A stretch of 64,000 nt of DNA from Cyanobacteriota bacterium. Its GTDB lineage: Bacteria > Cyanobacteriota > Cyanobacteriia > Thermostichales > Thermostichaceae. The first letter of the stretch is position 1. Each line of letters starts with the position of its first letter. Positions 48,892 to 64,000 of this stretch are shown piece by piece. The position numbers were made by a program, and so were the translations under genes. The stretch lies in the NCBI GenBank assembly GCA_033764955.1, contig JANRIL010000041.1, positions 1-64,000 on the forward strand, given 5' to 3'. The notes beneath the pieces were generated by a model that did not search any database, was not told where the DNA came from, and saw only the letters and a program-made list of their open reading frames with translations.

Positions 48892-49470
48892 ATGGTTCGC
48901 ACCGCCTCTACGATGTTGGCGCTGGGCACGCAAGCCCCTGATTTTGATCTACCGGATGTGGTTAGCGAAAAAAGAATTTCTCTTGCCAGCTTTGCGGATC
49001 GGGCTGCCCTCTTGGTCATGTTTATTTGCCAACATTGTCCTTATGTCAAGCACGTACAAACCGAGCTAGCTCGCATCGGTCAGGACTATGTAGGGCGGGG
49101 TGTTGGCATTGTGGCTATCAGTGCCAACGATGTTGAAAAATATCCTGACGATAGCCCTGCTAACCTCAAGCTGATGGCAGAAACCCTCGGCTTTCCCTTT
49201 CCCTTGTGCTACGACGAAACTCAAGCTACCGCCAAAGCCTATTCAGCGGCCTGTACCCCCGATTTTTTTCTGTTTGATAGCCAACGCAGACTGGTTTATC
49301 GGGGACAGTTAGATGACAGTCGCCCCAGTCTTGATCTTCCGGTCACGGGGAAGGATCTGCGGACGGCTCTGGAAGGGGTCTTGGCAGGTCAAGCGGAGAT
49401 TCCCAATCAAAAGCCGAGTCTGGGCTGTAACATCAAATGGAAACCGGGCAACGAACCCAACTATGGATAA
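48892..49470 (+). CDS. AhpC/TSA-like thioredoxin-family protein
   Basis: APDFDLPD, MFICQHCPYV, ACTPDFF, YRGQLDDSRP, SLGCNIKW. Confidence 0.92.
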   Translation: MVRTASTMLALGTQAPDFDLPDVVSEKRISLASFADRAALLVMFICQHCPYVKHVQTELARIGQDYVGRGVGIVAISANDVEKYPDDSPANLKLMAETLGFPFPLCYDETQATAKAYSAACTPDFFLFDSQRRLVYRGQLDDSRPSLDLPVTGKDLRTALEGVLAGQAEIPNQKPSLGCNIKWKPGNEPNYG

Positions 49471-49533
49471 TGGCTGGGATAGGTTTCTGTTATAGTTTAT
49501 AAGCTGGTTGGTAGGATCTTGCCTGCTGACTGA

Positions 49534-49607
<74 letters not shown>

Positions 49608-49735
49608 TGGGCATCAAATGCTTAGCTAGTCAGGGTTTCAGCCATTATTGGCTTCGCTAAACCCTAGCATTTTTTGTGCCGCACGGATCCGTATAGGCAG
49701 TTTTTAAGAGGATTTCAGGTTAGTTTGGGTATGGA

Positions 49736-50698
49736 ATGGGTATGAAGTCTCCAAAAGGGGTAGTAGCAGTTGAGGCATTCCAGAGCCGACTTCGGCTGCG
49801 TTGGCGGCATGATGGAAAGCGGTATACGCTCTCAATTGGTTTGCCAGATTCAAAAGTCAACCGTCAAGTGGCAACCCAGAAAGCGATGCAGATCGAACTA
49901 GATATGGCCAGCGGCAATTTCGACTCTACCCTCAGCAAGTACAAGCCACAGGTTCATACCCAGCTTCATACCCACAAGATGACGGCTCAAAGTCTATTCA
50001 GCAACTATATTGAGTACAAGGCAAATACTGTTCTGCCCAAAACTCTCGATAACTATCGGGTGGTGCCACGATATCTCCATCTATTTTTCGGTCAAAAAGC
50101 CGCTGAATCGATCACATCAGAAGAGGTGGTGAAGTTTGTTGAGTGGTTTGGGCGAGAAGCTACGCTTATACCTAGAGTTCAGCGGGAAAAAGTCGCTATG
50201 ATTCGTTCCGCTTGGGAGTGGGCGATCAAAAACAGACTTATTGAAATCACTCTAAACCCCTGGGAGGATGCCCCCCTCCGTCTGAAGGTACCGCCAAAAC
50301 AGCCGACAAAGCCTTTCACTCAGGAAGAGATCGAGAAAATTATTCAGGGGTTCCGAACGGATCGATTCTATAGTTTCTATACTGACTTTGTGACATTTCT
50401 TTTTTTAAGTGGCTGCCGAACCGGTGAGGCAATAGGTTTACGCTGGGGATCCGTTAGTGAAGACTGCTCGACGATTTGGATCGGTGAAAGTATGGTTAGG
50501 GGTGAAAGAAAATCAACCAAAACTAATAGAGCCAGAGTCATCGCAGCATCAAAAAATCTACAGCAGATGCTCAAACAACGACGCACCTCTTCTGTTGAGC
50601 CAGACCAACTAGTCTTTCCATCTCCCACAGGGAAATCAATTGATGATCATTGTTTTTCTCAGCGATCTTGGAGATCAGTATTAGGAAAATTAAATATT
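49736..50698 (+). pseudogene. Tyrosine integrase with N-terminal Arm DNA-binding domain, 3'-truncated by IS
   Basis: RLRLRWRHDGKRY.LS.GL, I.LD...G.FD.TL.KY, SGCRTGE (catalytic Arg), KT..R. The frame runs into the IS end after LGKLNI, before the H/Y-x-x-R and catalytic Tyr motifs. Confidence 0.9.
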
Positions 50699-51981
50699 GG
50701 GAACCTCGAAAAATACAATACTCTCCTATAGCCAAGCGACTCAAGTAGGAGAGCACTCGTCATTGAAGCTCTTGTCAAATCAATTGGGCTTCTTATACTT
50801 GTTACCAATTTAATTTATTAGTTTGTCTCAGTACTTACTTTTCGATTCCTCAAAATCCTCCCTGTCTCTGATGCACCGCTTGCTTCTCCCAATAGATATA
50901 TCGCTTAAAGTTATAAGCTAGATTCCTTAGCCCAATCACTGTCTTTGCCCTAGCAATTCCTATCGTCTCAATCAGTTTCCCTCCCATCTCGTTCACCCAT
51001 GTACCAAAGTTATGCTCGACCTTAGCCCTAGTCTTTGACCGTTCATGGTTCTTCCGTTTCTGTTCCTCACTAAGCTCTTGATTCCGGTATTTCCTCTCAT
51101 GTATCTGGCTCTCATATCCCAGCAAACCTAAAACCTTCTCTTCTAAATCACTGCGATAAGCACTGTCTCCCCACAATTGATCTGAATCATTCTCTACATC
51201 CAGTAAAGCTGTCAACATTTGCGAGTCATGCACCGCCGCATCAGTCACCTCATAGCATCGAATAAACCCATATCTTACATCCACACTTAGATGGTTCTTA
51301 TAGCCATAGTATGATTGACCATTTTTGTCCAGCGTGCATCTCTGTCCTTCTGACTCACTTTTTTAGGCTTATCTTCCCACCCCTCTGGAAACTTTCCCTC
51401 TTTCATCTGTGCATTCTCTTTCTTGCTATTATGTTGCTTGGGTACTGGCACTAAACTGGCATCGACAATCTGACCTCCTCTGGCTTCATATCCTTGTTCG
51501 GTTAAATAGTCATTGAACTGTATAAACAGATCCTTTGCATAACCTCCTTTGACAAGCTGCTCCCGAAATAGCCATACTGTTGTCGCATCAGGAACCCTAT
51601 CTTCCAAGCCTAACTCCAAAAACTCCATAAATGAGAGTCGGTCATTCACCTGGTACTCTAGTTCACTATCACTGATATTGTAGAGACGCTGAAGAATCAA
51701 CATCTTAAACATTAGAATCACATCAATTGGCTTACGACCTGCTAGACTCTTGCGTGCTTTTTGATGAATACTCTCCAACTCCAAGCGAAATTCCTCCCAC
51801 GGAATCATTCTCTTCAAACGCAAAAGCATGTCTTTCTGTTCCGTAAGCTTTTCTTTTCGTTTCTCTAGATCCCAAAATCCCTGCTGACCCATTGCTATCC
51901 TTATGATTTATCTCCTTAAACAATCTCATAAACTATAGAAAGTCGCCAGTCAAATCCCTCAATTGATTTATCGATGTGCCC
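50699..51981 (-). mobile_element. IS5-family insertion sequence (1283 bp)
   Basis: 16-bp terminal inverted repeats GGGAACCTCGAAAAAT / GGGCACATCGATAAAT (13/16), TATT on both flanks, transposase inside. Confidence 0.92.
50850..51892 (-). pseudogene. IS5-family transposase split by a -1 frameshift
   Basis: ORF 51287-51892 (GRKP, LSFMEFL, PDATT.W.FRE, IVDAS, DRDARWTK) continues in the -1 frame as NGQSYYGYKNHLSVD...HDS...WGDSAY...R.KVEH.FG; junction at an A5 run (51322-51326). Confidence 0.9.
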
Positions 51982-52360
51982 TATTGCGAAGCTTCCCTGT
52001 CCACTTTGATGTGTTTTTATCGATTCCTTTAGTGAAGGATAAACGATTCCAAACTCTATCATCGTGGATTGGGATTGCCTTTTCTTTGGGTAACCAGACG
52101 ATCGGTTTAACCTTAAAGCGAACCACAAAAGGGTCATCCTGAGGAAGAAAAACTGGGTCATCATCTGAGAAGCATTCGCTTTGCACCTCAAAAACCCCTA
52201 TCCATCGAGATAGCTTAGTCATGTAACAGATAAACTTATCGCCAATCTTAATCCGGCTTGCGGCATTTTGTTGACGTAAACGAAACCCAGAAACAGCACG
52301 ATTTGACTGCGAGAATACTTCATAAGTTTCTGGGGAAAAGAGATTCAGGTAGTACGCCAA
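51982..52360 (-). pseudogene. EVE (PUA-like) domain protein, 3'-truncated by IS
   Basis: YYLNLFSPETYE.F, SGFR, IKIGDKFICY.TKLSRWIGV.EV, DPFVVRFKVKP; frame hits the IS end after WTGKLRN. Confidence 0.82.
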
Positions 52361-52480: not shown

Positions 52481-53461
52481 CTATCCACCAATTTGGGACA
52501 TGGTGCGGCGGTAGGGATTGCCTGTCGTGCCAGAGTCCCGCTGCTTGAAATTGATGTCAGGTTTGATCAATAGGAGTTGTCCCACCTGTTCCCGCAGATC
52601 AGCTAGCGGGGATCCCTGGCGCAGTTGTGTCTTGAGATCGATTTGTCCGGTTTCGTTGAGCAGGCAGGGGCGCAGCCAACCATCTGCCGAGAGCCGCATC
52701 CGATTGCAGCGATCACAAAAGCACTCCGACATCTGGCTGATAAAACCCACCGTTCCTGCTGCCCCTGGGATGCGAAACACATCGGCGGGGCCATGTCCGA
52801 CCACCGCTCCCGTCGTCAGACCAAACCGTTGCTGGAGGCGTTGTCGCAGTTGAGCGGAATCCACCCAGCCTTTATCCTCAAACAGGGGTTGATTGCCAAT
52901 GGGCATGAATTCGATAAAGCGGATATGCCAAGCTCGATCAAGGGAGAGGGCGGCTAGATCTTCTATTTCGTGATCGTTCACCCCTGGGATCACCACCACA
53001 TTCAGCTTGAGGGGATCAAACCCGACCCGATGGGCGGTTTGGATGCCCTGCCAGACTTTTTGCCAAAGGTCACGTCCGGTGATCTGGTGAAAGGTATCGG
53101 GGTGCAATGAGTCGAGGCTGATGTTGATGCGCCGTAATCCCGCGTCGTAGAGTGGCTGGGCTTGTGCCGCCAGATCAAATCCATTGGTGGTTAGGGAGAG
53201 ATCCTCCACTCCTGATAATTGGCGGATGGCCTGGATCAGGCGAGGCAACTGGGGGCGCAAAAGCGGTTCTCCCCCGGTCAGGCGAAAGTGATGGATGCCC
53301 AGAGGAATAAAAACTTCCTGTAATAAAGTCAGTAATTCCGGATCCGTTAACAGATTTTGTTTGGCGAGCCAAGCGATCGAATCGCTGTCAGGCATACAGT
53401 ATTGACAACGAAAATTACAACGGTCGATCAGACTAACCCGCAAATAGTTAACCGATGGCAT
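52481..53461 (-). CDS. moaA: GTP 3',8-cyclase
   Basis: [31 protein letters not shown]....G.LRPCL, C-terminal MSQIGG. Confidence 0.97.
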
Positions 53462-53569
53462 AGGCTGATAATGGGTTTGAAGTCAGCCAGATCAAAGGAA
53501 ATGTCTAGCTTCTTTCAACCTCCTAAATTTAGGCTTATTGTAACCTGACTTTTTGAGGGGATCCCGGCT

Positions 53570-54445
53570 ATGTTAACTCCCTCGATGGCTAGTGGGGTGC
53601 TTTATCTGGTGGCGACCCCCATCGGCAACCGCGAAGACATCACCCTCCGCGCCATTCGCATTCTCAAAACGGTGGATTGGATTGCTGCCGAAGATACCCG
53701 CCATTCTGGGTTGTTGCTCAAACATCTAGAGATCCGCACGCCTCTGATTAGCTATCACCGTCATAACCAAGCGCAACGGATCCCGGAGTTGCTGCAACGC
53801 TTACAGGCGGGACAGTCGGTGGCTCTGATCAGCGATGCCGGAATGCCCGCCATTTCCGATCCGGGAGAGGAGATGGTGCAAGCCTGTCTAACCTCTGGCA
53901 TTTCAGTCGTACCCATTCCAGGGGCAACGGCGGCGATCACAGCATTAGCGGCTTCCGGTTTGCCGACAGAGCGGTTTGCTTTTGAGGGATTTTTGCCCAC
54001 CCAAACCGCCGCTCGTCGGGAGCGTCTCAGCCGACTTGCCCAGGAAGAACGCACCCTGATTGTGTATGAAGCCCCTCACCGCCTACCACGCACTCTTCAG
54101 GATTTGGCGATCAGCTTGGGGGAGGATCGGCAGGTGAGCGTGGGGCGGGAGTTGACCAAGCATTACGAAGAGTTTTGGCGGGGTAGCCTGGGATCCGCCC
54201 TCGCCCATTATCAAAGCCAACCTATTCGCGGAGAGTTTACGCTGGTGATCGCAGGGGGTAAGACAACGACAGCCACCGCCTCCATCGATGACCTCAAACA
54301 AGAGCTACAACACCTTTTGGAGGAGGGGGTTTCTCTCTCCCAAGCCAGTCGGCAGGTGGCCAAACACCGCCACCAATCTCGCCATCAGGTTTATCAACTG
54401 GCGTTGCAACTGCTAGCCTCCCAACCTGGATCAGAGGATGCTTGA
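53570..54445 (+). CDS. rsmI: 16S rRNA C1402 2'-O-methyltransferase
   Basis: LYLVATPIGN.EDIT.RA, EDTRHS, SDAGMP.ISDPG, YEAPHR, RELTK.YEE, RGEF. Confidence 0.96.
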   Translation: MLTPSMASGVLYLVATPIGNREDITLRAIRILKTVDWIAAEDTRHSGLLLKHLEIRTPLISYHRHNQAQRIPELLQRLQAGQSVALISDAGMPAISDPGEEMVQACLTSGISVVPIPGATAAITALAASGLPTERFAFEGFLPTQTAARRERLSRLAQEERTLIVYEAPHRLPRTLQDLAISLGEDRQVSVGRELTKHYEEFWRGSLGSALAHYQSQPIRGEFTLVIAGGKTTTATASIDDLKQELQHLLEEGVSLSQASRQVAKHRHQSRHQVYQLALQLLASQPGSEDA

Positions 54446-54505
54446 GAAAAGAAAGTGGCCAAAAGAAAGCCCAGATTCAGGGAGAGAAGAGGATCCCTGG
54501 AAATT

Positions 54506-54907
54506 TTAGGGGGAGGGACGCACCCAACAACGGGGATGTCGGCTAAATCCGATGCGTGGATAATAAGCATCAGCCGCCGGAGCCGCAATCAAAATGAGAG
54601 TGGCATGGGATCCCAACTGCTCTTGAGTCAGAGATAACAGCTTTTGGCCGATCCCGTGCCGCTGATAATCGCGGTGAACAGCCAAATCTGAAACATAACA
54701 GGCGTAGTGAAAATCAGTGAGGGAACGAGCCACCCCCACTAGGCGACTTTCATCCCAAGCCGTGACGATCAGATTGGAGTTTTTGACCATTCCCTCCATA
54801 CAGATAGGATCATCAATAGGTCGGCGTTCTCCTAATGTAGAGGCCACAAGTAGGTCAATAAACTGCTCAGTAGTAATTGCTTGATTGACACCATAGTGGA
54901 TGTTCAT
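54506..54907 (-). CDS. GNAT-family N-acetyltransferase
   Basis: LVGVARSLTDF.YACY.SDLAVH.DYQRHGIG, YY.RIGF. Confidence 0.9.
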   Translation of the reverse strand: MNIHYGVNQAITTEQFIDLLVASTLGERRPIDDPICMEGMVKNSNLIVTAWDESRLVGVARSLTDFHYACYVSDLAVHRDYQRHGIGQKLLSLTQEQLGSHATLILIAAPAADAYYPRIGFSRHPRCWVRPSP

Positions 54908-55078
54908 AAATTATCAATGCTGATAGTAGAGAGATTGTAGATCCTCACTAATACTGCGATTCAGTCCGACTAGCCATTGGCTCAATAGCTCCCTTGAGGT
55001 TGCGCCACACTCATGGGCTGATGTGAGGGTTTATGGCGATGGCTAGCCAAGCTGTCGCCCTCTGGGTTACGGTGAGGG

Positions 55079-56077
55079 GTGCTGATTTCAAGACAGACTG
55101 GCATGGTTAACGGGGGAGCAACACCGTCTCGTGAAGGGTTACGGATCGGATCCCGCAAAAGCGAGCTGGCTCTGGTTCAATCCCGTTGGGTCTTGGCTCA
55201 GTTGCAGCAGCACTATCCGGATCTGAGTCTGGAACTGCAAACCATGTCCACCCAGGGGGACATCATCCTGGATGTGGCTCTCGCCAAAATTGGGGATAAA
55301 GGACTTTTCACCAAAGAACTGGAAGTAGGCTTGCTGCAAAAAACCAGTGATTTGGCGGTGCATAGCCTGAAAGATTTGCCGACCCAGCTACCGGAAGGCT
55401 TAACTCTAGGAGCCGTCACCAAGCGAGAAAATCCTGCCGATGCCTTGGTAGTACATCGCAACAAGCAGGACTATCAACTGGATACGTTACCCGCCGGAAC
55501 CGTGATCGGCACCTCCTCCCTACGCCGCTTGGCTCAACTGCGCCACCACTATCCCCATCTGGAGTTCAAAGATGTGCGGGGCAACCTCAACACCCGCCTC
55601 AGCAAGCTGGACAATGGTGACTATGATGCCTTGATCCTGGCGGTGGCAGGGCTAGAGCGTTTGGGGATGGCGGATCGCATCCACCAGGTGATTGACCCCA
55701 GCATTTCCCTCTACGCGGTCGGACAGGGATCCCTAGGCATCGAGTGTAGAGCCGATGACGCCCCCACCTTGACCCTGATCAAACCCCTGATCGATCCAGA
55801 ATCTCAGGTTCGTTGTTTAGCCGAACGAGCACTCCTCCGTTCCCTAGAAGGGGGATGTCAAGTGCCGATTGGGGTGCATTCCCAGGTCAGCGGCGACCAA
55901 CTCACGTTAATGGGTATGGTGGCTAGTCTGGACGGAAAAACTCTGATTCGGGATCAGGTGACCGGTTCCATCAAAGAACCGGACCATATTGGCCTCACCC
56001 TCGCCGAGCAACTCAAGGAACTGGGAGCCGCCGACATTCTGCGAGAGATCTTTCGGCAAGCTCGCCCTAGTGCCTAG
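55079..56077 (+). CDS. hemC: Hydroxymethylbilane synthase
   Basis: [51 protein letters not shown]. Confidence 0.97.
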
Positions 56078-56094
56078 GGATCCCCATACTTCGG

Positions 56095-56727
56095 CTAACT
56101 CAAGACAATATCCTCAGCAGGGCGTTGAGCCAGCCGCTTTAGGTTTTGGTAGCGCAGCACATCCAACAACTCGTTACCGGAGCGTCCTTCTAGGCGGGCT
56201 TCCACATGCAGGGCTTGTCCGAGGGCTTCTACCGCCTGTAACCGAGGGATCCCGCGCAGCACCAGCCGATCCACCGCGTAGGCATCAGCCGCCAAGAGAC
56301 GACGGTCATTGGTTTGATCCCGACGTAATTGCCAGAGGGCTAAACCCCCCAATCCACCGGAAACCGTAATCCCCACCGGATCCTGCTGGAAGGCTTCAAA
56401 GACAAGGCTCAAACTGCCAAGAGCAGTTAAAGCCAGATAAAAGTCAATTTGCCGTGAGATAGCTCGACTATAGTAGCCAACCTTATGCAAAAACAAACCG
56501 GAGCGTTGATTGGGGGTAAATTGCCGCCATTCATGGGGTTTAACAAACAGCCGCAAGCGTCGCCGCCAGAGAAATTGGCGCTGCCCTTTGATCACAGTCG
56601 TTTGCCGATCGGGGGCAGGCAAAATCTCTACAGAATCGCGTAACCCCGCTGGTAATAGATCGAGGAGACGGGAGACTTCAGCCGGATCCAATTCGGGTTC
56701 GTTGTAGCCGTAATAACTACCATTCAT
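56095..56727 (-). CDS. DUF3318-like cyanobacterial membrane protein
   Basis: E..RLLDLLPA, two TM segments (QQDPVG), ADAYA, LRYQNL. Confidence 0.75.
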   Translation of the reverse strand: MNGSYYGYNEPELDPAEVSRLLDLLPAGLRDSVEILPAPDRQTTVIKGQRQFLWRRRLRLFVKPHEWRQFTPNQRSGLFLHKVGYYSRAISRQIDFYLALTALGSLSLVFEAFQQDPVGITVSGGLGGLALWQLRRDQTNDRRLLAADAYAVDRLVLRGIPRLQAVEALGQALHVEARLEGRSGNELLDVLRYQNLKRLAQRPAEDIVLS

Positions 56728-56741
56728 GCTGACTATCCCTC

Positions 56742-57461
56742 TCAGCCTAAGCCCATTGCTTGTTTCATTTCCCGCACAGCTCGTTCTAATCCAACCAAGA
56801 CGGCTCGGCTAATAATGCTGTGCCCAATGTTGAGTTCCTCCATGCCGACAATCGCCGCCACCGGCGCAACATTCCAATAAGTAAGTCCATGTCCAGCGTT
56901 GACCCGCAGTCCCAAAGAACGAGCCTGTTGGGTAGCCTCTTCTAAAAGCTTAAGCTGGAATGATCGGATGGCGGGGGTTTTGGCTTCGGCATAGCTGCCT
57001 GTGTGTAATTCTACCCACTGGGATCCCACCTGGGCGGCGGTGGTAATGGGATCCGGATGGGGGTCAATAAACAGGCTGACCGGGATCCCGGCGCTCTGAA
57101 GTTGCTCCACAATGGTTTTGAGGGAATCCGCTTGTCCTACCACATCCAGTCCACCCTCTGTGGTCACTTCCTGCCGACGTTCAGGAACCAAGGTGACATA
57201 ATCGGGTCGCAGGTCAAGGGCAATTGCTACCATCTCCGGCGTAGCGGCCATTTCCAAGTTGAGGTGAGTACGCACCGTCTGCCGCAACAGCCGCACATCT
57301 CGATCTTGAATATGTCGGCGATCCTCCCGCAGGTGAGCCGTAATCCCATCCGCTCCGCCCAGTTCGGCGAGAACAGCCGCCGCTACCGGATCCGGTTCTA
57401 CGGTGCGACGAGCCTGCCGTACTGTTGCCACATGATCAACATTCACTCCGAGACTCAACAA
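56742..57461 (-). CDS. pdxJ: Pyridoxine 5'-phosphate synthase
   Basis: [43 protein letters not shown]. Confidence 0.97.
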
Positions 57462-57697
57462 AGTAATGATTTCTCCAAGTTGGCCATACTACACTTTAGC
57501 CGATTCGGTAGGAAGCCCCGCGCCCTTTTCAGGGTGAGTCTGGGGATGAAAGCCGAGCCTGCCGATGAAACTTCTCCGGTCAAGAGGGTAGACGAGTCGT
57601 CCGCCGCTGGTCTAGTCGCCGTTTTCTCAGATAGCGAACCACTATCCTTTTTGATTGAGCCTGAAGTTTATGCAACAGGGATCCCGATCCGGAGTCA

Positions 57698-57814
57698 GAG
57701 TTGGACTGCGTGAAGGAGATGGACTGAAATAAGCAGCTCGCTACTCATCACTTGACCAAACTAACTTGGGAGCAAACCCTAACAACCCATGCTCTTGGAT
57801 CCGCTCAACGAATA
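57698..57814. repeat. 117-bp exact direct repeat, copy 1 (copy 2 at 60366-60482)
   Basis: Compared base by base; spans the immunity-gene 3' end, its stop codon and the start of the Pro-rich linker. Confidence 0.93.
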
Positions 57815-58379
57815 TGTCTGACACATAAGGCCATGCAGATTTTGGGTGATGTAACTTCATTCTGAAAATAGTTTGATCCTTAACTAAATCAGGATAAAAC
57901 TTGAAACTCACGATACGGCTGAGAGTGCGGTCAGCTAATAAACCCTTGCTTCTCAGAGAATGATAAGAGCCAGGAGGCAATAATTTAGCTTCCTGAGCGG
58001 TATAGCAATAATCAAATTCAGAATTTTCTGTATCCAGAGCATGTACATAATTAGTTATATTATAGCAATAATATAGTCCATCTTCAGTAATGATGGGTAA
58101 CAATTCACCGTTTGGAACAAGTAGATCTTCTAATGCATCTACTGCTTTCTGACTGAAGACACGGCATGAGCCACAACCTGGGAAATCTGAAATAGGATAT
58201 TTTTTAGGTTGCTCATCAGTTACCCAATAAGCCTTGCAGGGAGTCCATTCTTGTTGGATAGATATCCCAGTAAACCATTTTTTCTCAGGAATATTCTTTA
58301 TGATTTTTCGAGCATACTCTCGCTCTAAGTTGAGCAAGTTATAAGAATTTACATCTGCGTCAAGAATATATATTCTCAT
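57741..58379 (-). CDS. Immunity protein, Imm11/DUF1629-like (module 4)
   Basis: SDFP, FSQKAV.ALEDLL...GELLP, YY.YN.T..V.ALD.E.S, IF, YVSD.FV..I..HGL.GF....VW; paralog of 60409-61047. Confidence 0.82.
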   Translation of the reverse strand: MRIYILDADVNSYNLLNLEREYARKIIKNIPEKKWFTGISIQQEWTPCKAYWVTDEQPKKYPISDFPGCGSCRVFSQKAVDALEDLLVPNGELLPIITEDGLYYCYNITNYVHALDTENSEFDYCYTAQEAKLLPPGSYHSLRSKGLLADRTLSRIVSFKFYPDLVKDQTIFRMKLHHPKSAWPYVSDIFVERIQEHGLLGFAPKLVWSSDE

Positions 58380-58404
58380 CTGTTATAATCCTTCATTCTG
58401 GAAA

Positions 58405-58790
58405 TCAAAGATCTAAGTGGCCAATTACTAAATCACGGGTAATTAGTCTTAGTTCTGTAATTATTTTAGATCGAAGCTGAGAGAAATCGTCATTAGGATT
58501 ATCCTCTATAATATCCCTCAATCGCGTATTAACAGCACTATAATAATCACCACTATGCCCACCATTGTGAATGGCACCTGGCACACGCTTCGCTACCTCA
58601 CTATTAGCAGGCAACATCACCCCATTCTCGGCACTGTTGATGCCAATGCCATAATCTCTCAGAATATCCTGGGCTAACTTCGCTGCTGTTGCCGTTGCAG
58701 CCACAATATGATGAGGTCTTGTGCCACAGGGCATGTCCCCATAAACAGCTTCTAATGCTCTTGCCAGTTGGTCAGAGTTGCTAGTAGAAG
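58405..58790 (-). pseudogene. Orphan AHH-type nuclease toxin tip (module 4), no linker or pre-toxin domain
   Basis: Frame open from ~58790 (SSTSNSDQLARALEAVYGDMPCGTRPHHIV...INSAENGVMLP...IHNGGH..YY); ATG at 58734 is internal by comparison with module 2. Confidence 0.82.
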
Positions 58791-58901
58791 ATCATGATTC
58801 TGTTTGTATTGTCTCTATCAGAATGCTAAAGATTATGTTGAGATTGCGTTGGCTCTATGAAATGTGAGATTTACCTTTCTCTGATAGGAATTTTGGAGTG
58901 T

Positions 58902-59453
58902 CTAAGAGGAGGATGACCAGACTTTATCAAACTTAAACCCTGTTAAATGATGTTGGCGAACCAACTCGACAAATTGATCGCTGACATAAATACTATATCT
59001 AAATTGTTTATGAGGAATCCTAAAAATTTGCAAATCACCTATTTTACTTGGAAAGAATGAATGCTTTAGAATCTCTATAGGAGATCCAGAGGGAAGTGTT
59101 CTAAATTCGGAGTTTTGTTCATCTAAGCAATCGCAAGATGAGGTAAAGTGATAAGCAAAATATGCGCCGAAACATGGTTGCAGTGGTAAAAGCTCTCCAC
59201 TCTCTAATAAAAAATTACCTAAAACCATAATTGCCAAATCACTAAAAACTGGAATAGTTCCATAAATAGTAGCTCGATCACCAGGTATCCTCCCTCTTTG
59301 TCTTTTTGATATTGAGAGATGTACTGGATTCCAGATATCTCGAATTGGATTATCCTTATGCCATCCCAGCTCCATTAATTTCTTTGACTGATCAGGATCT
59401 AGGCAATGAAACATTATCCCATTATTATCGATTACAAGCAGATATATATTCAT
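58902..59453 (-). CDS. Immunity protein, Imm11/DUF1629-like (module 3)
   Basis: MNIY start 4 bp after the toxin stop; PVFS..A, GELLPL, DCLDE.NS, IFRIP, YVSDQFV......LTGF.F.KVW. Confidence 0.82.
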   Translation of the reverse strand: MNIYLLVIDNNGIMFHCLDPDQSKKLMELGWHKDNPIRDIWNPVHLSISKRQRGRIPGDRATIYGTIPVFSDLAIMVLGNFLLESGELLPLQPCFGAYFAYHFTSSCDCLDEQNSEFRTLPSGSPIEILKHSFFPSKIGDLQIFRIPHKQFRYSIYVSDQFVELVRQHHLTGFKFDKVWSSSS

Positions 59454-59457
59454 GGAT

Positions 59458-60408
59458 CTAAAGCCATAGACTTGAATCATGGTTCAGAAGTCTAGTTCTT
59501 AATTCATTGAGGATTTGAACTATTTCATTGACTGGTTCATTGTTATCTTTAGCAGACTTTAATAATGTATTTACCGTATTGATATACTTGCTTGTATGAA
59601 TAGTTTGATGATACGGCCCAGGAGCATAGGACTCTCTTCCCCCAGGTAAGAAAACTCCATTCACTGCATCATCAATGCTAATTTGATAGCTATCTAATAC
59701 ATCTCGTGCTTGCTGAGCACTAGGATCATTTTGCTCTACAATATGATGCGCCTGAGTATCACATGGTTGAAAGGTTGGGGGAGGCGCTTCAGGTAAATGG
59801 CTCCCTTGTTGCATATTTTGGGCTAGGCGATTAGTGGGTGATATCCGACATTCCACCTCAAATTCTATAAATTGATTGGCTTGACCGTCAGTTCCAAGAA
59901 GACTACTCCAAACAGTAGCTGAGGATGGAGAAATACTGTTCAGCAGTTGAAAACCCATAGTGGCAGGCGGATAAGTCCCCTCAGAAGCTACCTCAATTTT
60001 TATCTTACTGAAAACTGCTCTGAGTTGAAGAGGCTGGTTTGCTACGGTTCCCTGATCCCAAAGCAATTGGCTTGATTGGGTAGTTTCGACTTGTGGGTAT
60101 GGAGGGTTGATAGTGACTCCATTTTGCTTATTCAGGAGAGGTGTAACAGTGATGCTAACTCTGTCTCCATCATCAGGATAATGTCCATTATCCCACAACT
60201 CATTTTCAAGCAAATATTCATTGGAACTAATGACAATACTGGAGGGAGGAATCTTATCGTCAACTTTGGGATCCGGTGAAGGACTAGGAGAGGGAGAAGG
60301 ACAAGCGGAGGGAGTGGGATCTGGGGGAGGATCTGGAGTCGGAGGAGGATCCCGATCTGGAGTCGGAGTTGGACTGCGTGAAGGAGATGGACTGAAATAA
60401 GCAGCTCG
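59458..60408 (-). CDS. Orphan toxin module 3: Pro-rich linker + pre-toxin domain + AHH nuclease, without an obvious start codon
   Basis: Frame open 65 codons upstream of the TTG at 60213 (RAAYFSPSPSRSPTPTPDRDPPPTPDPPPDPTPSACPSPSPSPSPDPKVDDKIP...); DNGH, SEGTYPPAT, FEVECR, PCDTQAHHIV, DAVNGVFLP, HQTIHT..Y. Confidence 0.82.
   Translation of the reverse strand, partial: RAAYFSPSPSRSPTPTPDRDPPPTPDPPPDPTPSACPSPSPSPSPDPKVDDKIPPSSIVISSNEYLLENELWDNGHYPDDGDRVSITVTPLLNKQNGVTINPPYPQVETTQSSQLLWDQGTVANQPLQLRAVFSKIKIEVASEGTYPPATMGFQLLNSISPSSATVWSSLLGTDGQANQFIEFEVECRISPTNRLAQNMQQGSHLPEAPPPTFQPCDTQAHHIVEQNDPSAQQARDVLDSYQISIDDAVNGVFLPGGRESYAPGPYHQTIHTSKYINTVNTLLKSAKDNNEPVNEIVQILNELRTRLLNHDSSLWL
60247..60309. 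repeat. 63-bp exact direct repeat encoding SACPSPSPSPSPDPKVDDKIP (other copy at 63456-63518)
   Basis: Compared base by base. Confidence 0.93.
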
Positions 60409-61047
60409 CTACTCATCACTTGACCAAACTAACTTGGGAGCAAACCCTAACAACCCATGCTCTTGGATCCGCTCAACGAATACGTCTGACACATAAAGCA
60501 GACCAGCTTTTGAGTGATGTAAGTCCATTCTGAAAACAACTTGGTTTTTAACTAAATCAGGATGAAACTTGTAATTTATGATATGACCAAGGCTACGATC
60601 AGCTAATAATCCCTTAGTCCTTAAATAACCATAAGAACCAGGAGGGAGTAATTTAGCTTCTTCAGCAGTATAGTAATAATCAAACTCAGAGTTTTCTGTA
60701 TCCAGAGCATCCACAAAGTTAGTTACGTTGTAGCAGTAATAGGTTCCATATTCGGTAATGATAGGTAATAATTCACCGCTTGGAATAAGTAGGTCTTCTA
60801 ATACGTTCACTGCGTTCTGACTGAAGGCAATACGCCCCCCACAACCTGGAAAATCTGAAAGAGGGTACTTTTTAGGTTCTTCATCAGTTACCCAATAAGC
60901 TTTACAAGGAATCCATTCATGCTTAATTGGTTTTCTATACAACCATTTTCTCTCTCTGTAGTTAGCAGTAATTCTTCTAGAATCACTTGATTCAAGATTA
61001 AGCAAGTTGTAAGGATTAGCATCCCAATCAAGAATATAGATATTCAT
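60409..61047 (-). CDS. Immunity protein, Imm11/DUF1629-like (module 2)
   Basis: RBS AGAGGAG; same motifs as the other three immunity ORFs. Confidence 0.82.
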   Translation of the reverse strand: MNIYILDWDANPYNLLNLESSDSRRITANYRERKWLYRKPIKHEWIPCKAYWVTDEEPKKYPLSDFPGCGGRIAFSQNAVNVLEDLLIPSGELLPIITEYGTYYCYNVTNFVDALDTENSEFDYYYTAEEAKLLPPGSYGYLRTKGLLADRSLGHIINYKFHPDLVKNQVVFRMDLHHSKAGLLYVSDVFVERIQEHGLLGFAPKLVWSSDE

Positions 61048-61082
61048 TTGCTCCTCTTCTGTATCTTTGTTAAAAGTCTGGC

Positions 61083-62045
61083 TTACAATTGCAAATTCCC
61101 AAGAACTAAGTCGTTAGCAATTTTTCTTAGTTCATCAATTATTTTCCCTCTAATTTGCTGATAATTGTTACTGTTAGTAACTGCTTGATCTCTAGTTATT
61201 CTCAGTCGGTCGTTAACAGCACTATAATAAGCACCACTATGTCCACCATTATGAATAGCACCTGGCACACGCTTCGCTACCTCACTATTGGCAGGTAACA
61301 TCACCCCATTCTCAGCACTGTTGATGCCAATGCCATAATCTCTCAGAATATCTTGAGCTTCCTGCGCTGCTCCTGCCGTTGCCGCCACAATATAATGGGG
61401 TCTTGTGCCACAGGGCATGTCCCCATAAACAGCTTCTAATGCCCTTGCCAGTTGGTCGGAGTTACTGCTGGAAGTATAAGATAATCTCCTGCATTCCAAA
61501 TTAAATTGATACTTTTGACCCAGCTCTAGCATTGGTAGATTGGCACTCAATGGCTTTAACTGACTATAGCTACTGATGCTTCCTCCTGTTGGGTCATGAT
61601 TATTAAACAAAAGGTTGAGGGTCGCTGCATCAGGATAACTCCCCAAATCAATCGCCTCAATAGTAACAGAATTGTTAAATCCTGGTAAATCAACTGTCTG
61701 TAAGTTCCCTAATGTGATTGTTAGCTCGACAGGAGAGAGAGCAGGTTGAGCTGCAATATCAGAGGTAGAAGGGTTAAAAGAACCCGCAGATTCGATAGTT
61801 AGCTTGATGCGATCTTGATCCTGGTGATGTCCATTGTCTTCAAAGTTTATACCCAGAGAATAAGTATCATTCTTCAAGACCACTCTTACAGCAGACTGAA
61901 AGGCAAACGGAGTCGGATCCTTTAGGTCAGGACTAGGGCTAGGAGAGGGCGAAGGACAAGCGGAGGGACTGGGATCCGGGGGAGGATCTGGAGTGGGACT
62001 TGGGCTGAGAGGCGGCGGTGGTGGCGAACTGAATAAGCAGCTCAC
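61083..62045 (-). CDS. Orphan toxin module 2: Pro-rich linker + pre-toxin domain + AHH-type nuclease (HH motif reads HY)
   Basis: GTG start overlaps the upstream immunity TGA; SACPSPSP, DNGH, LGSYPDAAT, LECRR, PCGTRPHYIV, NSAENGVMLP, HNGGH. Confidence 0.82.
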   Translation of the reverse strand: MSCLFSSPPPPPLSPSPTPDPPPDPSPSACPSPSPSPSPDLKDPTPFAFQSAVRVVLKNDTYSLGINFEDNGHHQDQDRIKLTIESAGSFNPSTSDIAAQPALSPVELTITLGNLQTVDLPGFNNSVTIEAIDLGSYPDAATLNLLFNNHDPTGGSISSYSQLKPLSANLPMLELGQKYQFNLECRRLSYTSSSNSDQLARALEAVYGDMPCGTRPHYIVAATAGAAQEAQDILRDYGIGINSAENGVMLPANSEVAKRVPGAIHNGGHSGAYYSAVNDRLRITRDQAVTNSNNYQQIRGKIIDELRKIANDLVLGNLQL

Positions 62046-62596
62046 TCCTCATCACTTGACCAAATCTTGCGAAACAGAAAGCCTGTTAATCGAGCCCGTT
62101 CAACAATATTTACAAACTGATCTGTCACACAGGGATAGCTATCATGAGGAATTTGCACAGTCTTAAAAATGGTAAGTTGGGAAACCTTTTGTGGAATAAA
62201 ATAATATTTTTTGATATAATAAACTAAGCCATTTTGATTCTTTGATAGGGAAGACTTTTCTTCATCAAGAGCATCTACAATCGTTGTGGTATTGTAGAGA
62301 TAGAATGTTCCATTATCACTTTCTAACGGTAATAACTCTCCATTCATCTCTAGTACTTCTCCTAAAGCTTCTACTGCTTTCTCGGTAAATGCAGGCATCC
62401 CACTCAATCCTGGAAAATCACTAATTAGTCGAGGGGGTTTGTCAAGATCACTAACGAGCTGGACTGGTACTGGCTCCCAAATTCCTAATACAGGATTTCC
62501 AGAGAGAAATTTACTCACTTTATTGAGTTTCTCCCCACTGCCCACAACTAAACTTCGATATCTACTAACATCGGGTACTAAATGATAAATATTCAT
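62042..62596 (-). CDS. Immunity protein, Imm11/DUF1629-like (module 1, cognate to the full-length toxin)
   Basis: GAGGT RBS then MNIY; SDFP, PAFT.KA, GELLPL, YLYN.T.IVDALDEEKS, IFK, VTDQFV......LTGF.F.KIW. Confidence 0.84.
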   Translation of the reverse strand: MNIYHLVPDVSRYRSLVVGSGEKLNKVSKFLSGNPVLGIWEPVPVQLVSDLDKPPRLISDFPGLSGMPAFTEKAVEALGEVLEMNGELLPLESDNGTFYLYNTTTIVDALDEEKSSLSKNQNGLVYYIKKYYFIPQKVSQLTIFKTVQIPHDSYPCVTDQFVNIVERARLTGFLFRKIWSSDEE

Positions 62597-62606
62597 GCTC
62601 TGAACC

Positions 62607-63998
62607 TCAATGGGGAAATGTTTTTGCAATCAGTTCTTGTCGAATGTTATTCAATACATCTTGAATGTTAAATGTTGTTGCTCCTGGTTGATTTGCTGCT
62701 GCTGCTAATCTTCTCCTAACTTCCTGAACATAAGTGTTCGTATGAAGCCCTGGAGATTGATTATGAGGTGTGCCAGGAACGGGAATGCTATTATTCTGTG
62801 GTAATACTACTCCGTTTGAGGCACTGTTGATATGAATATCAAACTGAGTCAGAATATCTTTAGATGCTTGTACCGCTTCACTCATTTCCGGACTACCACT
62901 AAAGTTTCCTTTCGGCACAATATGATGAGCTGCCGTACCACATGGCATCCTTTTCCCATAATATCCAAATGGCTCTGAAAATACATTCCCAGATAAATTC
63001 ATGTGGAGTCCTTGCTCCATATTTCTGGCTAGCTTAGCGGCATCATCACTGCCACCAGCCGGAGCACGACGACACTCTACTTCAAAGGTAATGCTTTGGT
63101 TAGCACTCAACAACACACTCCCTTCAAATGTGGTGAGGCTAACCGATTGACTAGATCCAGGGAGAGGAGTTGGATCTTGTTCTACCTTTTCTATCTTAAA
63201 TTCTAGAGTGGCTGGCGGATATTCTCCTTCCGATAACCCCTCAATGGTGACTTTGTTCTCAACTGACTGGAGATCAAATACACTTGATTTGTCTTGAGCC
63301 GATAAATTAATAGAATCTTGCTCACCTGTAGCAGAACTAAGAGTATATCCAGTAGGTTCAACGGTAATAATAACGGAATCACCATCAGAAGTATGATGAC
63401 CATTATCGTTAAGCTTCATCGTAAATTGTTGATAGTCATGCACCACAACCTTGACAGGAATCTTATCGTCAACTTTGGGATCCGGTGAAGGACTAGGAGA
63501 GGGAGAAGGACAAGCGGATGGACTGGGATCCGGAGTTGGGGGAGGATCCGGAGTAGGAGTGGGTTGAGGAGTGGGAGTAGGACTCGGTGAAGGGAAAGGA
63601 TCTGGTTGGTTATAAATCTCTTCTAGAGTAGCGGCAAAAGCAGCTAGCTGCTCAGGAGCCATATAGTCCTCGACCAAGGCTAACAACTGAGCCGTGGAAT
63701 AGCCAACTAAGCCAAAGACTTCAATAGTTGTGAGAATACAGCCATTGGGATTGGCAAGAGCCAAGCATTGGTTAATAGCAGTTGCAAACGCTTGTGGGGA
63801 AACAGAACTAGTCTTGCTTTCGCTCTCAGAGAGGTGAAGGCTACTCTGGTCAGGAGGGCAAGGATCCGGAGTGGGAGTTGGGCTGGGAGGTGGCGGTGGT
63901 GGCGGTGGCGGTGGCGGTGGCGGTGGCGGCGGTGGTGGCGGAGTGGGATCTGGAGAGGGGAAAGGAGAAGGACTGGGGGTTGGGCTAGGAGAAGGGGA
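62607..63998 (-). CDS. C-terminal part of a large polymorphic toxin (start outside window): poly-Pro, hydrophobic helical segment, Pro linker, pre-toxin domain, AHH nuclease
   Basis: No stop from 63998 to 62607; PCGTAAHHIVP, INSASNGVVLP, HNQSPGLHT..Y. Confidence 0.85.
   Translation of the reverse strand, partial: SPSPSPTPSPSPFPSPDPTPPPPPPPPPPPPPPPPPPPSPTPTPDPCPPDQSSLHLSESESKTSSVSPQAFATAINQCLALANPNGCILTTIEVFGLVGYSTAQLLALVEDYMAPEQLAAFAATLEEIYNQPDPFPSPSPTPTPQPTPTPDPPPTPDPSPSACPSPSPSPSPDPKVDDKIPVKVVVHDYQQFTMKLNDNGHHTSDGDSVIITVEPTGYTLSSATGEQDSINLSAQDKSSVFDLQSVENKVTIEGLSEGEYPPATLEFKIEKVEQDPTPLPGSSQSVSLTTFEGSVLLSANQSITFEVECRRAPAGGSDDAAKLARNMEQGLHMNLSGNVFSEPFGYYGKRMPCGTAAHHIVPKGNFSGSPEMSEAVQASKDILTQFDIHINSASNGVVLPQNNSIPVPGTPHNQSPGLHTNTYVQEVRRRLAAAANQPGATTFNIQDVLNNIRQELIAKTFPH
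63885..63941 (-). repeat. Poly-proline tract (19 consecutive CCN codons, mostly CCA/CCG)
   Basis: (TGG/CGG)n on the + strand, in frame with the toxin ORF. Confidence 0.9.
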
Positions 63999-64000
63999 AG

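Follow-up and report, generated by a model that had tools for sequence, protein, structure and literature searches.

An AHH nuclease and Imm11 immunity array in a cyanobacterium, with orphan toxin modules and recombination boundaries in proline-linker DNA

In the cyanobacterial genome described here, a small nuclease toxin with a predicted lipoprotein signal heads an array of toxin and immunity genes, and the DNA encoding its proline-rich linker has repeatedly served as a boundary of recombination. The array is found in the window, i.e., the whole 64,000-nucleotide stretch of DNA that was analyzed (contig C4:1-64000 of an assembly of 3.8 Mb in 48 contigs, 89% complete, labeled G000 and referred to below as the source genome). 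Here, four toxin/immunity pairs are located on the minus strand at 57741-64000, each composed of an open reading frame (ORF) for a toxin with an AHH nuclease end followed by an ORF for an Imm11 immunity protein. The first toxin, tox1, is the only one to carry an export signal, which is part of an N-terminal region referred to as the head. The other toxin ends form orphan modules, and such modules are found also in a second, head-less array on another contig (C44). Our preferred interpretation, which we consider reasonably probable, is that tox1 is an AHH DNase exported via Sec as a lipoprotein and paired with a cognate Imm11 protein, that two loci keep an archive of toxin ends in the form of orphan cassettes, and that these ends are exchanged at the conserved Pro-linker DNA.

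The core of the linker at 63456-63518 (module 1, i.e., tox1) is identical over 63 bp to that at 60247-60309 (module 3), and the match cannot be extended by one base on either side. The core encodes SACPSPSPSPSPDPKVDDKIP and shows 0 differences at 15.0 synonymous sites, as compared to a proportion of 0.71 differing among the 163 synonymous sites directly downstream, where the amino-acid identity of the two modules is 0.38. The corresponding chance of an unchanged core is 0.29^15, i.e., ~1e-8, so protein constraint alone is insufficient to explain the identity and the DNA itself has been homogenised. This shared stretch and the divergence that follows it had been pointed out in a first-pass annotation of the window, made by a model from the letters and an ORF list, and the match proved exact.

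The arrays on C4 and C44 differ at 625 of 5030 aligned positions, and these differences are distributed as a mosaic. One conversion tract extends from 63540, in linker 2, to 63240 (7 differences in 301 positions, Poisson 2e-12) and another, tract B, from 60350, in the linker of module 3, to 59640 (15 in 711, Poisson 1e-28), where the Poisson values refer to a background of 0.15 per site and to intervals picked after the profile was seen, which reduces their weight. Tract B covers the linker, the β-sandwich domain described below and most of the AHH part. Synonymous divergence (dS) between the two arrays varies among adjacent genes from 0.13 (tox3) to 0.75 (imm3). In addition, a fragment at C44:112934-113248 is chimeric, i.e., a module-2-type leader is joined to the end of a module-3-type linker and the start of the pre-toxin domain, with the crossover located in the shared linker core. 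Other breakpoints also lie in linker DNA: module 1 of C44 starts in poly-Pro, the leader of module 2 joins the end of linker 1 to the linker-2 core, and the island edges are found at GGATCC. The linker core is kept in all three full orphan modules in both arrays. Taken as aligned DNA, these data show that recombination within and between the arrays repeatedly began or ended in Pro-linker DNA, and the shared core, the conversion tracts and the chimera agree with the earlier proposal that the Pro linker is the junction of constant and variable parts. Present-day swapping of tips into the expressed tox1 gene is what we infer.

All four toxin ORFs in the window match the Pfam family AHH (PF14412) at 43-56 bits (cut-off 22.3), and genome-wide the family is found above the cut-off in seven of seven modules. 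The four ORFs downstream match Imm11 (PF07791, DUF1629) at 30-39 bits (cut-off 22.1), and each of them adjoins or overlaps the 3′ end of its toxin. On C44, five of the six Imm11 ORFs score above the cut-off; the sixth reaches 15.6 bits and is connected to imm1 by phmmer (7e-30). None of the immunity proteins has a signal peptide. The AHH motif of tox1 reads AAHHIV...NSASNG..LP...H...H...Y, and the HH pair is kept, as [AP]HH or THH, in six of the seven modules, the exception being module 2 of the window (PHY). Across the array (57750-63750) the GC (guanine plus cytosine) content is 0.35-0.47, as compared to 0.53-0.58 on the housekeeping side (52500-57500). The first-pass annotation had proposed four pairs on the minus strand, AHH tips, Imm11/DUF1629 immunity genes, a composition more AT-rich than that of the flanks and one signal-bearing gene followed by orphan tips; the ORF listing, Pfam matches for all eight ORFs, the GC values and the lack of an export signal in modules 2-4 are all in line with this description.

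The tox1 gene occupies 62607-64000 of the window and reaches 451 bp past its edge, to an ATG at contig position 64451 (minus strand, as for all array features given below). The ORF had been described earlier as open to the window edge and as a full-length carrier. It does continue beyond the edge, and it is the single signal-bearing gene at the head of the array, but it stops growing at this ATG and encodes only 614 residues, i.e., a small protein of the Sec/lipoprotein type and not a large carrier. A signal with a lipobox (residues 1-19, MARSIWLWGGLLSFGLAAC) is followed by a disordered Pro/Ala/Ser tether (20-60) and a Cys-rich domain with 8 Cys (61-142). Linker 1 (143-198; 63858-64000, on to 64025 beyond the window) contains 22 consecutive Pro codons in a (CCGCCA)-like repeat. 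Next are a helical middle domain without detectable relatives outside the source genome (199-282; 63606-63857) and linker 2 (283-332; 63456-63605), the 3′ 63 bp of which are the core in common with module 3. The C-terminal part consists of a pre-toxin β-sandwich with the motifs DNG..DGD and ECRR (333-462; 63066-63455) and the AHH nuclease region (463-614; 62610-63065), where the Pfam match covers residues 503-607.

The N-terminus of tox1 agrees with the lipobox rule, which is taken from PROSITE-type patterns (LAAC with Cys19, Arg3 and a hydrophobic core), and would thus be a lipoprotein signal; genes for Lgt and LspA are present in the genome. Export, lipidation, toxicity and delivery of tox1 are predictions made from its sequence. 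In a Pfam scan of all 614 residues (E ≤ 0.05), AHH was the sole family, with no Rhs, filamentous-haemagglutinin/VENN, Hint or DUF1020/MafB-N domain and no colicin or pyocin translocation or receptor domain; the earlier statement that the junction is not an Rhs core end, VENN or Hint domain is in line with this result for the complete protein. The head matched no Pfam family, and NCBIfam returned only far-sub-threshold matches of linker 2 to the Pro-rich spacers in TonB, SslE and InlK. A word-based search with residues 1-300 gave 44 matches, six of which were inspected and rejected as head homologues: the five foreign proteins match via Pro/Thr/Ser-rich stretches only, and the sixth is the module on C44. 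No homologue was found in a sequence search with residues 58-142, and the ESM Atlas gave no usable match for residues 55-145 or 196-285.

The second array (C44:104650-113250; L010 1650-10250) contains the same modules in the same order and is 87.9% identical to C4 58876-63905 over 5052 bp. It is flanked by the housekeeping genes DUF1501 and CbiG/methylase, has no exported head and begins with an immunity gene. The 130 bp preceding tox1 in C4, presumably the promoter region, are 93% conserved in C44, where they lead directly into an imm1 copy. Module 1 of C44 starts right after this copy, within the poly-Pro run of CCG/CCA repeats, which comprises 22 codons in C4 (63864-63935) and 7 in C44 (L010 2350-2375) and is a likely site of in-frame length variation. 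The C44 array has several additional components, i.e., two more imm1 copies (three in all), one further Imm11-like gene, a SUKH(SMI1/KNR4)-TPR protein and a terminal fragment. We rejected the possibility that a single locus is represented here by alleles of two strains in the bin, because each array resides inside a long contig (122 kb and 161 kb) and the flanking housekeeping genes are not the same (pdxJ/PadR and DUF1501/CbiG, respectively). In total, the genome harbors seven AHH modules, ten Imm11-like genes and one head, i.e., the exported N-terminal part is found on one of the seven modules and as a single copy.

The selective state of the modules was assessed by comparing the C4 and C44 paralogues. 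Although 12% of the aligned positions differ, six full orphan frames (316-435 residues) have stayed open in both arrays. The ratio of nonsynonymous to synonymous divergence (dN/dS; Nei-Gojobori, custom script) is 0.15-0.32 for the toxin ends and 0.14-0.27 for the immunity genes, although, being a ratio between paralogues, it may reflect constraint on one copy only, which limits its value for the preferred interpretation. Divergence is highest in the final ~100 nt of the toxin and in the first half of the immunity gene (81/401 and 80/321 differences), the pattern expected for a co-evolving toxin-immunity interface.

These data bear on a different explanation, in which unequal crossing-over or tandem duplication in Pro-codon repeats left the orphans and the second array behind as debris without adaptive value, and selection maintains the immunity genes only. 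Several features fit such a scenario, i.e., module 4 is truncated, module 2 carries PHY, the end fragment on C44 is broken, and the three imm1 copies, the extra Imm11 gene and the SUKH-TPR gene of C44 resemble a poly-immunity locus. However, the orphan toxin frames are open in both arrays with the low dN/dS values given above, the conversion tracts span toxin sequence and not the immunity genes, and every full orphan module has retained the linker core in both arrays. We consider debris an improbable explanation.

Several of the points above, together with others, weigh against the preferred interpretation, i.e., an exported nuclease with archived ends exchanged at the linker. Some decay is real, as seen in the truncation of module 4 and in module 2, where the second His of AHH is gone. 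Pro-rich stretches are found in 69 ORFs of at least 150 residues genome-wide, some of them spurious; because such stretches are common, the linker may be mainly a structural spacer, and the abundance of Pro-rich coding repeats also fits an origin of the orphans as debris. The head has no homologue in any of the searches, so its constancy across strains cannot be shown. A sister-strain locus was not found in the contig, metagenome or phylum searches, i.e., no actual tip swap was seen, as the debris scenario would have it: a scan of genome contigs gave three loci only, apparently on G010 and G003 contigs, and a degenerate DNA pattern for DPKVDDKIP gave three matches in metagenome contigs, all in unrelated ORFs; nor was any sequencing run listed. 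Finally, a model of the AHH region (residues 463-614) obtained with AlphaFold2 (AF2; predicted local distance difference test, pLDDT, 86.1; predicted template-modeling score, pTM, 0.85) was compared with 48,161 chains, where the best match (Z 4.4) was to helical proteins and no HNH entry was listed.

The domain that precedes the nuclease was modeled together with it. The AF2 model of residues 326-614 (pLDDT 85.2, pTM 0.81) displays a β-sandwich, with strands in residues 9-136 of the model, followed by an α/β AHH part. For the β-sandwich, no Pfam family matched, Foldseek gave no match in the PDB at E ≤ 0.001, and the best VIA-align matches (Z 6.0) were generic Ig-like, Calx-beta and MG domains. 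Sequence searches of the PDB gave no match for the toxin and only noise for imm1. A profile of the pre-toxin domain gave 65 matches at E ≤ 1e-3, 12 of them at E ≤ 1e-10, among 1.84 billion representative proteins. A Pfam scan of 18 of these 65 proteins identified AHH in seven (at least three of which look like calls from the source genome or G010), EndoU in one and long Ig-repeat proteins with a partial match in four, and the remaining six showed no clear family. Two sites in this region are nearly or fully invariant: E-C-R-R (dibasic) at the end of the β-sandwich (Cys135 of alignment A2, tox1 residue 460) and P-C-G/D-T at the start of the AHH part (Cys179, tox1 residue 504). On the basis of this conservation, they are candidates for a processing site or an inter-domain disulfide.

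In relatives, this end is combined with other heads, a modularity that adds to the case for the preferred interpretation. One relative, G017, has a 526-residue lipoprotein with a different Cys-rich domain and two β-sandwiches, the head of which is shared (36% identity over 283 residues) with P0086, a protein that ends in EndoU. In G003 and G010 the same β-sandwich-AHH end is attached via a Pro/Glu linker to a head of ~1069 residues with a lipobox-like N-terminus, and up to three Imm11 genes follow. The lipobox rule is passed by five of nine full-length relatives; G003 reads FLTSC with an ambiguous start codon, and P0056, P0059 and P0061, which have the same β-sandwich-AHH end, display plain signal-like N-termini.

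This last group suggests another possibility, i.e., that the toxin leaves its anchor through cleavage in a Pro-rich linker or by way of vesicles and works as a diffusible bacteriocin for which the β-sandwich is the receptor-binding part and no contact is needed. The domain order (binding part, nuclease, immunity gene) is that of nuclease bacteriocins, and the long disordered linkers are plausible protease targets. Moreover, LolA was not found in the genome (89% complete), as was the case also in the Synechococcus elongatus control, which leaves an outer-membrane placement of tox1 unsupported and thereby counts against the preferred interpretation as well. On the other hand, most of the full-length relatives pass the lipobox rule or, as the sixth one, come close to it, tox1 has no colicin or pyocin translocation or receptor domain, and no lysis or release gene was seen among the array ORFs. 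A freely diffusing toxin appears unlikely, if somewhat less so than the debris scenario.

A further alternative is that the nuclease serves its producer, e.g., by helping it to take up DNA or to scavenge DNA from outside the cell, or in programmed death within a filament or biofilm, with Imm11 guarding against protein that has not been exported. It is compatible with the presence in the genome of another lipoprotein ending in NucA/NucB beside a ComJ-like gene, a pairing known from Bacillus competence. However, the toxins fall into three types that have diverged from one another, each is paired with an immunity gene of its own, and divergence peaks where the toxin ends and the immunity gene starts. 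In addition, the GC content of the island is low, and AHH is found in only three of 40 relatives (4/41 counting the source genome). Such features fit conflict systems and not housekeeping, and we regard this alternative as very improbable. At the level of the phylum, the pre-toxin profile matched in 5 of 401 genomes, and the four besides the source genome gave weak partial matches.

Other lipoproteins are encoded on C44. At C44:131534-134566 (L011 2534-5566), the ComJ-like gene follows the gene for an 838-residue protein (C44:132053-134566) that has a lipobox (LLSC) and a NucA/NucB DNase domain at its C-terminal end. This protein shares a 212-residue domain with the head of the G003 AHH toxin, its own residues 190-395 being 39% identical to part of that head, and it appears to represent a second lipoprotein nuclease toxin family in the source genome. 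In a 454-residue lipoprotein encoded at C44:130173-131534 (L011 1173-2534), which matches no Pfam family, a poly-Pro linker leads into a C-terminal domain starting with GDPHLYTFDG; the GDPH motif is reminiscent of autoproteolytic VWD-type domains.

The sequence of events that we propose for the exported nuclease is as follows. The tox1 lipoprotein would be exported, lipidated by Lgt and LspA, and held in the envelope on a long Pro-rich stalk. Its β-sandwich-AHH end may then reach a neighboring cell by contact, in vesicles or once it has been cleaved off close to the conserved ECRR junction, enter the cytoplasm and cut the DNA, unless a matching cytosolic Imm11 protein is present there. The conserved linker core (~60-110 bp) could be the site at which homologous recombination or gene conversion moves a tip from the archive, along with its immunity gene, to a position behind the exported head, which would change the toxin type of the strain; the head-less array on C44 would be a source of spare tips and extra immunity genes. 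A stronger version of this model, which we put forward only tentatively, is that the two loci represent an expression site and a silent archive, as for pilE/pilS or vlsE, where the products are weapons instead of antigens. Conversion started in the linker would then switch the toxin type of a clone, and the lipoprotein route would be one undescribed in cyanobacteria that operates without type V, VI or VII secretion systems (T5SS, T6SS, T7SS) or TraAB.

The remaining components of the array are arranged as follows. The imm1 gene (62042-62629, Imm11) has a conserved ATG at 62596. Orphan module 2 (61083-62045; leader, linker, β-sandwich and AHH, without a signal peptide) starts at a GTG that overlaps the imm1 stop, and its short leader, SCLFS, is followed by PPPPPLSPSPTPDP and then the linker-2 core. 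This leader is the end of linker 1 fused to the linker-2 core, the helical domain being missing (61983-62026 = 63861-63904, 91%). The AHH motif of module 2 (window 61380-61400) is PCGTRPHYIV, as compared to PHHIV in its C44 paralogue and in module 4; to judge from the motif, this loss of a catalytic-motif His is likely an inactivating change. Next to module 2 are imm2 (60409-61047, Imm11) and orphan module 3 (59458-60408; linker, β-sandwich and AHH; 316 residues stop-to-stop, 59461-60408). The linker of module 3 is in frame, with no start codon ahead of it and the first ATG, GTG or TTG at 60213. The claim of the first-pass annotation that modules 2 and 3 each restart at the linker is thus correct as to the reading frame of both, but module 3 has no start codon before its linker. 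The imm2 stop codon, TAG (window 60409-60411; L010 5848-5850), is in frame with the module 3 ORF in both arrays, and read-through would yield an Imm11-linker-toxin fusion, an arrangement that may be a coincidence.

The imm3 gene (58902-59480, Imm11) overlaps the 3′ end of module 3. Orphan module 4 (58405-58791; 128 residues stop-to-stop) is a truncated paralogue of module 2 that comprises the AHH core only, with no linker and no pre-toxin domain. Together with imm4 (57741-58379, Imm11; a paralogue of imm2, amino-acid identity 0.72), it duplicates, at 79% identity, the 3′ part of module 2 and imm2 (57679-58790 = 60347-61474). With respect to the definition of an orphan cassette, modules 2 and 3 keep the linker core and are devoid of a signal, and module 4 keeps neither. 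After imm4, at the island edge (57661-57740), a leader is followed by ~60 nt from the start of a module-3-type linker, which end at GGATCC and are joined to a ~30-bp sequence. This sequence of ~26-32 bp (GGATCC CTGTTGCA.AAACTTCAG) is found at window 57661-57692, at C4 64585-64616 (upstream of tox1) and at C44 104652-104677, i.e., it marks the left edge of the C44 island and flanks the C4 island on both sides, where in each case a linker fragment adjoins it. By its placement, it resembles a direct repeat that delimits the island.

The host is identified as a cyanobacterium by 11 matches to phycobilisome proteins. Genes to the left of the array are rsmI-like, hemC-like, DUF3318 and pdxJ, and other genes nearby encode PadR, an HlyD-type adaptor and an RND pump, i.e., no dedicated secretion machine adjoins the array. 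In a search for an empty site around pdxJ in three relatives, PdxJ is ~79% identical and there is no synteny with the PadR/efflux side; the region of a fourth relative ended at a contig end. Promoter and terminator scans gave counts not above the shuffled expectation (19 vs 14.6 and 3 vs 6.1, respectively), and PADLOC found no match among six proteins. A second low-GC patch (window 49309-52360, GC 0.41-0.44) harbors a tyrosine-integrase gene (Arm-DNA-bind_2 and Phage_integrase), a DDE transposase in two ORFs (DUF772 and DDE_Tnp_1) and an EVE-domain ORF, and an adjoining stretch has a tRNA-like look in antisense translation.

Hardly any experiments have addressed the interbacterial toxins of cyanobacteria, and experimental support for lipoprotein polymorphic toxins has so far come from myxobacteria only. 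The locus offers a compact, testable case, with a 614-residue toxin, three spare tips, ten immunity genes and two loci, that can be used to address how a Sec/lipoprotein-exported nuclease gets into the cytoplasm of another cell without a dedicated injection machine. It also illustrates, at nucleotide resolution, that low-complexity linker DNA can act as a recombination boundary for the swapping of protein domains. If switching is active, the system would represent programmed variation of a weapon, of relevance for kin discrimination in mats and blooms.

The system is best viewed against those already described. In the survey by Zhang et al. (2012, PMC3482391), Tox-AHH is already tabulated with Imm11, with cyanobacteria among the carriers, a motif given as [AG]HH, N, H, H, Y and a "T2SS/Sec" (type II secretion system/Sec) signal-peptide route; the lipobox-headed polymorphic effectors APD1/APD2 are described there, and pre-toxin domains are proposed as possible processing sites. 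The present locus shares with that Sec class the [AG]HH..N..H..H..Y end with Imm11 (DUF1629) downstream, a signal-peptide N-terminus in place of a dedicated secretion domain, homogeneous multi-copy immunity loci and stand-alone toxin cassettes as a source of new ends (PMC3482391). In contrast, the accessible part of the survey contains neither the present head (lipobox, Cys-rich domain, poly-Pro rod and helical domain) nor the β-sandwich pre-toxin domain, the Pro-linker junction or a second head-less array. The suggestion that the architecture falls outside the described classes is accordingly valid for the linker junction, which is unreported in these sources as far as they are accessible, but not for the toxin, the immunity protein, the Sec route or lipobox heads.

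The SitA proteins of myxobacteria, lipoprotein polymorphic nuclease toxins with AHH (PF14412) tips included, are experimentally established (PMC8546572, PMC5562445). They have in common with tox1 a type-II signal with a lipobox followed by a disordered stretch, a non-toxic N-terminal part (called an escort domain in SitA), a swappable C-terminal nuclease, a downstream cytosolic immunity gene (SitI) and acquisition by horizontal transfer (PMC5562445, PMC8546572). In the accessible text of these reports, SitA occurs solely in those Myxococcales that have traAB, the toxin is delivered when outer membranes are exchanged, and a tandem array of orphan ends such as the present one is not mentioned for sitA. 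Furthermore, the tox1 head has no detectable relatives, and the MYXO-CTERM model TIGR03901 matched neither in the source genome (89% complete) nor in any control genome.

The orphan arrays of CdiA, Rhs and MafB systems show the same layout, i.e., one exported gene followed by tandem toxin-end/immunity modules without export signals, where each module has a short piece of the constant region that permits homologous recombination with the expressed gene. Here, however, the retained piece is Pro-linker DNA (core ~63-110 bp) and not VENN, PxxxxDPxGL or a MafB core, the predicted export is by a Sec/lipoprotein route and not by T5SS or T6SS, and the whole toxin comprises only 614 residues. Nuclease colicins and S-type pyocins likewise combine a binding/translocation part, an HNH-type DNase and a tightly co-evolving immunity gene, and their new types arise by recombination at domain borders; unlike the predicted tox1 product, they are neither Sec-exported nor lipidated, and tox1 contains no colicin or pyocin domain. 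Full-text searches, subscription journals and supplements apart, returned no paper on a cyanobacterium that combines a Pro-linker junction with orphan cassettes and a head-less archive. By these comparisons, the head, the pre-toxin domain, the junction and the two-locus layout are undescribed, and AHH-Imm11 pairing, Sec-type export and orphan cassettes are already known.

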